From positions 1 to 16,330 of the IMG/VR virus record IMGVR_UViG_2684622620_000010: DNA of 16,330 bases. One strand, 5' to 3'. Under the pieces are notes generated by a model that ran no database searches, was not told the origin of the DNA, and worked only from the letters and a program-made list of their open reading frames with translations. Made by a program: the position numbers and the translations under genes. Positions 1,286 to 2,090 of this stretch are shown one piece after another. Source of the DNA: a virus. Lineage: Duplodnaviria > Heunggongvirae > Uroviricota > Caudoviricetes. The first letter of the stretch is position 1; each line of letters starts with the position of its first letter.

Positions 1286-1310
1286 TCTCCAGGAAACCCG
1301 GGGCGGTTCA
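1286..1310. repeat. IS terminal inverted repeat (right), copy A
   Basis: CCGGGGCGGTTCA at 1298-1310 is the reverse complement of positions 1-13. Confidence 0.85.
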
Positions 1311-2090
1311 CAAATCCTCATCGTCCATTTCTTTTGGATTACGCAGACGCGACGTTGACATATTCCCAGCCCCGGCAACGGTACGTTCAACAATCTGCTG
1401 AGCGCCCATTTCCATGCTGAAAAACAGTGCGCCGCCGCCATCTGCGGTAACGCCATCGATAATCTTCAGGGTAAATTCCGTTTTCCCCATGCCTGGACGA
1501 CCGGCAACCACAACAAGATCGGTCATGTTGATACCGCCCAGGGCGACATCCAGATCCTCGACTCCGGTTTTCAGCATCATTTCCTGCGCGTCACCAGACA
1601 TCCGTTTATCAACGGTGTCAATGTAGAGCGGTAACAGCTCTTTGATGTGTACCGGCTGGACTGTGCCGGTAGCGGCGCTCATATCCAGCACCTGAGCAAC
1701 ATGAGATTCAATAACCTCATCACGCTGACTCTGGTTTACAGCGTTACGGATACCATCCGCGCCAGATTGCAACAATGCCGCCATTTTGCGGCTCCGCCAT
1801 GCCCGCACCATTTTCCCGGCATAGCCTTTCAGATTCGGTACCGTTGCCGGGATCCGGGATATTTGAGACAGATCCGCAAGGCTGGAACCGCCCAGCGCTT
1901 CGCTGATAAACAACATGTCGATCATGCCGTTCGCCAGTGCCTGCTTTTTGATTTCGCTGAAAGCGCGACGGTGAAACACGATGCTGAAGGCTTCCTCCGG
2001 AGTAGTGGCAATCACATCAAACGCGTCAGGCGTCGCGCCACCGTTAATCAGACCAGCGAGAACGATCGCTTCCAGTTCTTCTGGATTCAT
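1311..2090 (-). pseudogene. Prophage DnaB-family replicative helicase, 3'-truncated by IS insertion
   Basis: Translation has a DnaB N-terminal domain and Walker A (VVVAGRPGMGKTEF, then FFSMEMGAQQIVERT) but stops after about 260 aa, where a full DnaB-type helicase would be about 450-470 aa. The stop codon TGA is supplied by the IS terminus (1308-1310). Confidence 0.8.

Follow-up and report, generated by a model that had tools for sequence, protein, structure and literature searches.

In P22-type replication modules (genes 18 and 12), the helicase gene follows an initiator gene that contains iterons, and the phage helicase is required for replication of the phage DNA. The Escherichia coli prophage that we describe here has the same gene arrangement. 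In its intact form the helicase of this prophage is approximately 42% identical, within its first 260 residues, to protein 12 of P22 and aligns with bacterial DnaB structures over residues 7-431. Unlike P22 gp12, in which both PF00772 and PF03796 are represented, the copy studied here keeps residues 1-260 only, and it ends where an insertion sequence (IS) begins.

Insertions of this kind have been documented extensively in pathogenic E. coli. In O157:H7, 62% of the IS629 copies are located within prophages or prophage-like elements (PMC3271280), and a further report indicates that the behavior of Stx prophages can vary with the position of IS629 (PMC10810198). The circles formed by IS3-family elements carry a spacer of 3-4 bp of flanking DNA between their abutted ends (PMC2909936), which fits the 3-bp target duplication found at this locus. 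The present case resembles the IS629/IS1203 insertions in prophages of O157:H7 and other STEC in that the element is the same, the target is a prophage gene, the duplication is of 3 bp, and the outcome is a broken gene. It differs from the O157:H7 cases in its non-O157 host, whose nearest complete relative is the avian isolate APEC20/16, and from the Stx phages in that the prophage is integrated at serU and combines a lambdoid early region with a contractile tail. The literature searched contains no description of this insertion site in the helicase gene. We conclude, with high confidence, that a single and ordinary transposition of IS629/IS1203 split the helicase gene of the serU prophage between codons 260 and 261, duplicating the trinucleotide CAA in the process.

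Layout of the prophage region

The window, by which we mean the whole stretch of 16,330 bp that was analyzed, is bounded exactly by two copies of the IS (Table 1). The 13.7 kb between these copies hold the early region and left arm of the prophage, followed by serU, mtfA, asnT and the first 2.9 kb of yeeJ. The prophage genes stand in the order truncated helicase, RepO-like initiator, YdaT, YdaS, cI-like repressor, a 740-aa YdfE_N protein, Gp157, DUF4224 and integrase. The initiator and helicase genes overlap in the sequence ATGA, indicative of translational coupling, and the initiator gene contains an iteron array (2714-2803) of four repeats of the form TTGGGTCA-N-TTGACC, arranged as two 45-nt units, which presumably constitutes the replication origin of the prophage. 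As a side observation, the ydaS-like gene (3953-4210, minus strand) is intact in the window, and its counterpart in APEC20/16 has a 1-nt insertion at a point corresponding to window position ~4010 and is annotated as frameshifted.

Table 1. Coordinates, strand and supporting evidence for features of the window
Feature	Position	Strand	Evidence or remark
Complete IS629/IS1203-type element of the IS3 family	1-1310	+	Terminal repeats, ORFs, Pfam, Rfam, RefSeq copies
TGA stop of the helicase ORF	1308-1310	-	Reverse complement of TCA, the last three bases of IRR
Right-hand copy of the 3-bp target duplication, CAA	1311-1313	.	Leu260 (TTG) on the coding strand
Helicase 5' fragment, codons 1-260	1311-2090 (ORF with stop, 1308-2090)	-	780/780 nt identity to the intact allele
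RepO-like replication initiator, 354 aa	2090-3151	-	In related genomes, annotated as 'replication protein RepO' or as 'hypothetical protein'
Prophage tyrosine integrase	9438-10466	+	Adjoins tRNA-Ser
tRNA-Ser serU, attachment site	10552-10641	-	Next to the integrase
yeeJ, 5' part	12078-15020	+	Frameshifted, then cut by the second IS
Second IS629/IS1203 copy	15021-16330	+	Direct orientation; 0 differences in 1310 nt

The insertion element

The element at the left end of the window is 1310 bp long, starts with TGAACC and finishes with GGTTCA, and a repeat search found its terminal repeats (IRL, 1-25; IRR, 1286-1310) to be 88% complementary. It encodes orfA (55-381), with an HTH_Tnp_1 domain, and the overlapping orfB (378-1268), with HTH_21, rve and rve_3 domains (all Pfam), and Rfam detects an ALIL frameshift pseudoknot at 336-452 (121.5 bits; gathering score, 50). 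The length, which in the IS3 family is about 1.2-1.5 kb, the imperfect TG...CA repeats, the overlapping orfA and orfB with their frameshift signal, and the 3-bp duplication, for which 3-4 bp are typical, are those of that family. Because many RefSeq copies with the annotation 'IS3-like element IS1203 family', from O157:H7 and from other E. coli, match the element at 100% over its full 1310 bp, we assign it to the IS629/IS1203 isoform group.

The truncated helicase gene

The homology between the window and the intact helicase allele ends exactly at 1310/1311. Read on the minus strand from 2090 to 1311, the open reading frame comprises 260 sense codons, the last of which (TTG, Leu260) is the reverse complement of 1311-1313; where the intact allele continues with ACC (Thr261), the window has the TGA contributed by the IS. 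The initial annotation had proposed a coding sequence that runs to 1311, yields about 260 aa and terminates on the end of the IS, and both the letters themselves and the alignment with the intact allele bear this out, the product being exactly 260 aa long. Its reading of the remaining protein as an N-terminal domain plus Walker A was also correct. The fragment consists of the N-terminal domain (PF00772, residues 4-91; 31.2 bits against a Pfam cut-off of 23), a linker, and the beginning of the RecA-like domain, where the Walker A motif GRPGMGKT occupies residues 197-204 (window 1479-1502), and it matches only profile positions 2-87 of the 255 in DnaB_C (PF03796). In alignments with the solved DnaB structures 9dls, 6t66 and 6bbm, the breakpoint falls after Walker A and before Walker B. 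The loss of approximately 200 C-terminal residues that had been anticipated amounts, in the alignment, to 203 of 463, and includes Walker B (LIGVDY, 304-309), SQLSR (347-351), RDSGSVEQDAD (369-379) and the arginine-finger region, leaving the product without a complete RecA-like C-terminal domain. Judged by its sequence, the window ORF is a gene fragment and not a functional member of the DnaB-like helicases.

The coincidence of the stop codon with the IS boundary is in itself unremarkable and lies within chance. Both ends of the element read 5'-TGA inward, and a gene entered in frame 0 therefore stops immediately, an outcome to be expected in one third of insertions; in the other two frames at the helicase-side end, 13 or more than 69 residues would be added. 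Hence, elements whose ends read TGA generate clean-looking short ORFs in one of three insertions.

The intact allele encodes a 463-aa 'replicative DNA helicase' (WP_028985348.1) and occurs in the IS-free genomes of E. coli O43 RM10042 and APEC20/16, as well as in nine of ten sampled contexts. Homologs are of full length: in the phage collection, 618 records align over 80% or more of the 463-aa query. The closest phage homolog, from Stenotrophomonas phage BUCT708, is 75% identical and has a CDS of 1389 nt. Clustering at 90% identity groups the 260-aa sequence with others into 202 members, and among those listed most have 463 aa, on several hundred contigs, and the shorter ones are labelled partial or lie at contig edges.

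One may ask whether the 260-aa protein could be a natural short member of the family, a stand-alone DnaB N-domain with a P-loop that touches the IS by coincidence, since its exact sequence is a RefSeq protein (WP_054627242.1) found on several contigs. We regard this as hardly credible. In both RM10042 and APEC20/16, the first 780 nt of the 463-aa gene agree with the ORF at every base, its match to DnaB_C breaks off at profile position 87, and the cluster is dominated, among the members listed, by proteins of 463 aa. Moreover, four contig places are listed for the exact product: the intact allele, cut off by a contig end and without the IS, accounts for three of them, and the IS junction for only one, in GCA_002531455.1. 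Natural homologs ending at the same residue, which had been named as the observation that would overturn the proposed truncation, did not turn up in these searches.

The contig-end partials deserve a comment of their own. In three unrelated assemblies (L004, L005, L006), contigs terminate within 2 nt of codon 260 of the intact allele, finishing in ...TTG or ...TTGAC with no IS attached. These ends are probably due to branching of the assembly graph where a SNP or mosaic boundary follows shortly after, and they imitate the truncated protein in look-ups by exact sequence.

The other side of the insertion

The window starts at the IS, and the outer flank of the element is invisible in it. This leaves room for an IS-mediated adjacent deletion or rearrangement in which the 3' half of the helicase gene, together with the rest of the prophage, was lost or moved elsewhere. 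Searches of the protein collection appeared compatible with such a loss, in that C-terminal fragment proteins beside an IS end are not on record there. An exact look-up of ten predicted fragment products found two (204 aa and 154 aa), both encoded by alleles that carry a nonsense mutation or frameshift but no IS, and a homolog search with residues 261-463 returned only fragments and distant relatives with at most 85% identity over at least half of the query, the sole near-identical match being a frameshifted piece of 130 aa. Look-ups of the flanking prophage proteins (the 740-aa YdfE_N protein and ORF6N) led only to long contigs with an intact helicase.

We scanned IMG/VR with the predicted left junction, GGTTAATCTGGTCAA then TGAACCGCCCCGG, and obtained one contig, IMGVR_UViG_2684622620_000011 (L028; 9345 bp). 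On its minus strand at 7421-8035, this contig encodes Leu260 followed by residues 261-463 without any difference from the intact protein, and then the natural stop, and this 3' half adjoins an IS (8036-9345) identical to window 1-1310, the junction reading ...CTGGTCAA directly followed by TGAACC. Thus, the 3' part of the gene that the initial annotation had suggested looking for beyond the IS was found: codons 261-463, then CAA, then the left end of the element. The 3' half is complete and has the expected CAA, and the same contig continues past it with another 6.1 kb of the downstream part of the prophage; L028 1311-8035 is collinear with the APEC20/16 prophage, from which it differs by two SNPs and one indel. 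In light of these results a deletion or rearrangement is very unlikely, and a simple insertion accounts for both halves of the gene.

The target duplication points in the same direction. CAA stands to the left of the IS at L028 8033-8035 and to its right in the window flank, CAAATCC, and these two sides of the 3-bp duplication are read from two separate contigs. The intact target, ...CTGGT CAA ATCC, has CAA once only. Presence of the trinucleotide on both sides of the IS and its single occurrence in the uninterrupted gene indicate a 3-bp target duplication and, therefore, simple transposition. That the window and L028 adjoin is deduced from the fit of the two gene halves, the identity of the IS in both and the shared CAA, since no single assembled sequence spans the helicase 3' half, the IS and the helicase 5' half.

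The duplication also bears on the possibility that the 13.7-kb segment and its two IS copies moved as one composite transposon, with the helicase fragment as cargo. Two identical copies in direct orientation do bound the window exactly, as such a structure would have it. In a composite transposon, however, the duplication is found only at the outer flanks of the pair, whereas the IS at 1-1310, at which we judged this, has a 3-bp duplication of its own and flanks that rebuild one uninterrupted gene. Furthermore, int, serU, mtfA, asnT and yeeJ follow each other in the normal chromosomal order, as in IS-free genomes, and we give a composite transposon next to no weight compared with a single insertion.

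Like the window, L028 is an exact IS-to-IS piece with identical IS copies at its ends (1-1310 and 8036-9345). The IS at L028 1-1310 is a third identical copy, here inverted, which interrupts, behind codon 103, a prophage gene for a hypothetical protein of 134 aa, and in this region (L028 1-1619) the IS-terminal TGA is again the stop of the truncated gene; its outer junction is absent from the IMG/VR viral contigs. Such IS-to-IS pieces suggest contigs cut by the assembler at repeats, each including the whole repeat, and the perfect identity among the IS copies may be an artefact of the assembly consensus, in which case it says nothing about age.

The same features, contigs bounded by whole IS copies of 100% identity, could also be taken to mean that a repeat-induced misjoin placed the IS beside the helicase gene. 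The right junction, however, is present in an independent draft assembly, GCA_002531455.1 (L003), and is thus not an artefact of this window. The left junction was recovered separately, from IMG/VR, and the two fit to the base with a proper duplication between them, which makes a misjoin extremely improbable and leaves the transposition as we describe it.

Distribution and age of the insertion

Neither the right junction nor the predicted left junction occurs in the 5,426 complete RefSeq E. coli genomes, and both are likewise absent from the species-representative genomes and the JGI metagenome contigs that were searched. The right junction and the outer yeeJ junction were also not found in the IMG/VR viral contigs. 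The insertion is confined to a small lineage, seen in GCA_002531455.1 and the IMG genome. The contig concerned in GCA_002531455.1 has 13,964 bp and, judging from its coordinates, begins approximately 127 nt within one IS and stops 124 nt within the other. Between the two IS copies (1311-15020), the window differs from IS-free APEC20/16 (NZ_CP127297) by two SNPs and two single-base indels, one of these indels being the ydaS-like difference at 4010. This near-identity, along with the identity of the helicase fragments to the intact allele, indicates that the insertion is recent.

Proposed mechanism and consequences for the prophage

We propose that the element moved by the copy-out/paste-in route of the IS3 family, via a circular intermediate, and inserted once into the helicase gene. 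Entry in frame 0 in combination with the inward TGA makes the 5' fragment end on the first three bases of the IS. The resulting 260-aa product, without Walker B, SQLSR and the arginine-finger region, would not be expected to form an active hexameric motor, and the 3' half (codons 261-463), intact beyond the IS, is cut off from its promoter and start codon.

Because the helicase is essential in modules that pair a P22-type initiator with a DnaB-type helicase, the prophage would be predicted to be unable to replicate its own DNA unless complemented. The initial annotation took the truncation to mark the prophage as replication-defective, which goes further than this reasonable prediction. In APEC20/16 the nin-region and Q genes are located beyond the helicase, and a 1.3-kb IS in the early rightward operon is expected to be polar on these downstream genes. 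In view of the split helicase and the IS insertions inside it, at least two in number, the prophage should be scored as probably defective.

For annotation, the ORF at 1308-2090 is best described not as a protein but as the 5' fragment of a helicase pseudogene that an IS has disrupted. At present WP_054627242.1 circulates as 'hypothetical protein' or as 'DnaB-like helicase C-terminal domain-containing protein, partial'. The event is real, yet it is ordinary gene decay of an already known kind, with little import beyond annotation.

yeeJ and its insertion

The initial annotation had counted the disrupted yeeJ with the helicase as at least two gene inactivations caused by IS elements, and for yeeJ this does not hold. 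Compared with K-12, the yeeJ of the window has an extra A near 12250 (12245-12255; GGAATC to GGAAATC), which shifts the frame by +1 at approximately codon 58 and leads to a stop 13 codons later. An identical 50-mer containing this frameshift is present in IS-free APEC20/16, where RefSeq labels the gene 'frameshifted'; hence the IS at 15021 entered a gene that had already decayed to a pseudogene. The yeeJ of IS-free RM10042 is also 'frameshifted' in RefSeq, the position of its shift not having been matched to that of the window. A gene that adjoins an IS can thus be dead before the IS arrives. At the junction itself the frame differs from that of the helicase, and the yeeJ frame gains approximately 16 IS-encoded residues, with a stop at 15069. 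The number of IS insertions in this neighborhood is at least three, at least two of which are inside the prophage.

Matches to the yeeJ::IS junction in complete genomes were rejected as candidates, being different insertions joined from two pieces. Separately, one locus (L021) has an IS3-family element at another position in yeeJ.

An IS-end-like sequence near the target

The intact gene contains the 12-mer TTAACCGCCGCG (L008 18429-18440), which agrees at 10 of 12 positions with the terminal TGAACCGCCCCG of the IS and is found 6 nt past the insertion point; relative to the window, it falls to the left of position 1 in the source genome, at L028 ~8018-8029. Positions within 10 nt of such an end-like site make up 0.33% of the 49-kb reference region, in what was a post hoc test. 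Targeting directed by the inverted repeats has reportedly been described for IS911 by Loot et al. in 2002. The match here is limited to the outermost 12 bases of the IS, and the insertion site in yeeJ has no end-like motif. That the insertion was steered by TTAACCGCCGCG and, separately, that an expressed 260-aa fragment might act as a dominant-negative factor or decoy against incoming related phages are speculations that we consider improbable. Nothing at this locus departs from the known behavior of IS elements in prophages.

Other disruptions of the same helicase gene

Decay of this helicase gene is recurrent, each of the other disruptions involving a different element or mutation and a different position. 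In strain RM9387 (CP009104.1; L020 2117-6048), an IS66-family element splits the gene into pieces of 62 aa and 430 aa. In two ENA metagenome contigs (L009 ~1130-1150 and L010 ~140-160), codon 255, five codons short of the IS site, is TAG, and a frameshift in a Logan contig (L011 2075-3465) produces pieces of 311 aa and 154 aa; the TAG-255 and frameshift alleles are either real pseudogenes or assembly errors.

Among phage records, 59 Stx2a-converting phages match the 260-aa fragment. In phage Stx2_481 (LC616045.1 17940-20309), the DnaB-like helicase match falls into two pieces over 2370 nt, approximately 1 kb more than such a gene needs, a surplus suggestive of inserted sequence, for instance a mobile element, an intein or a homing endonuclease.
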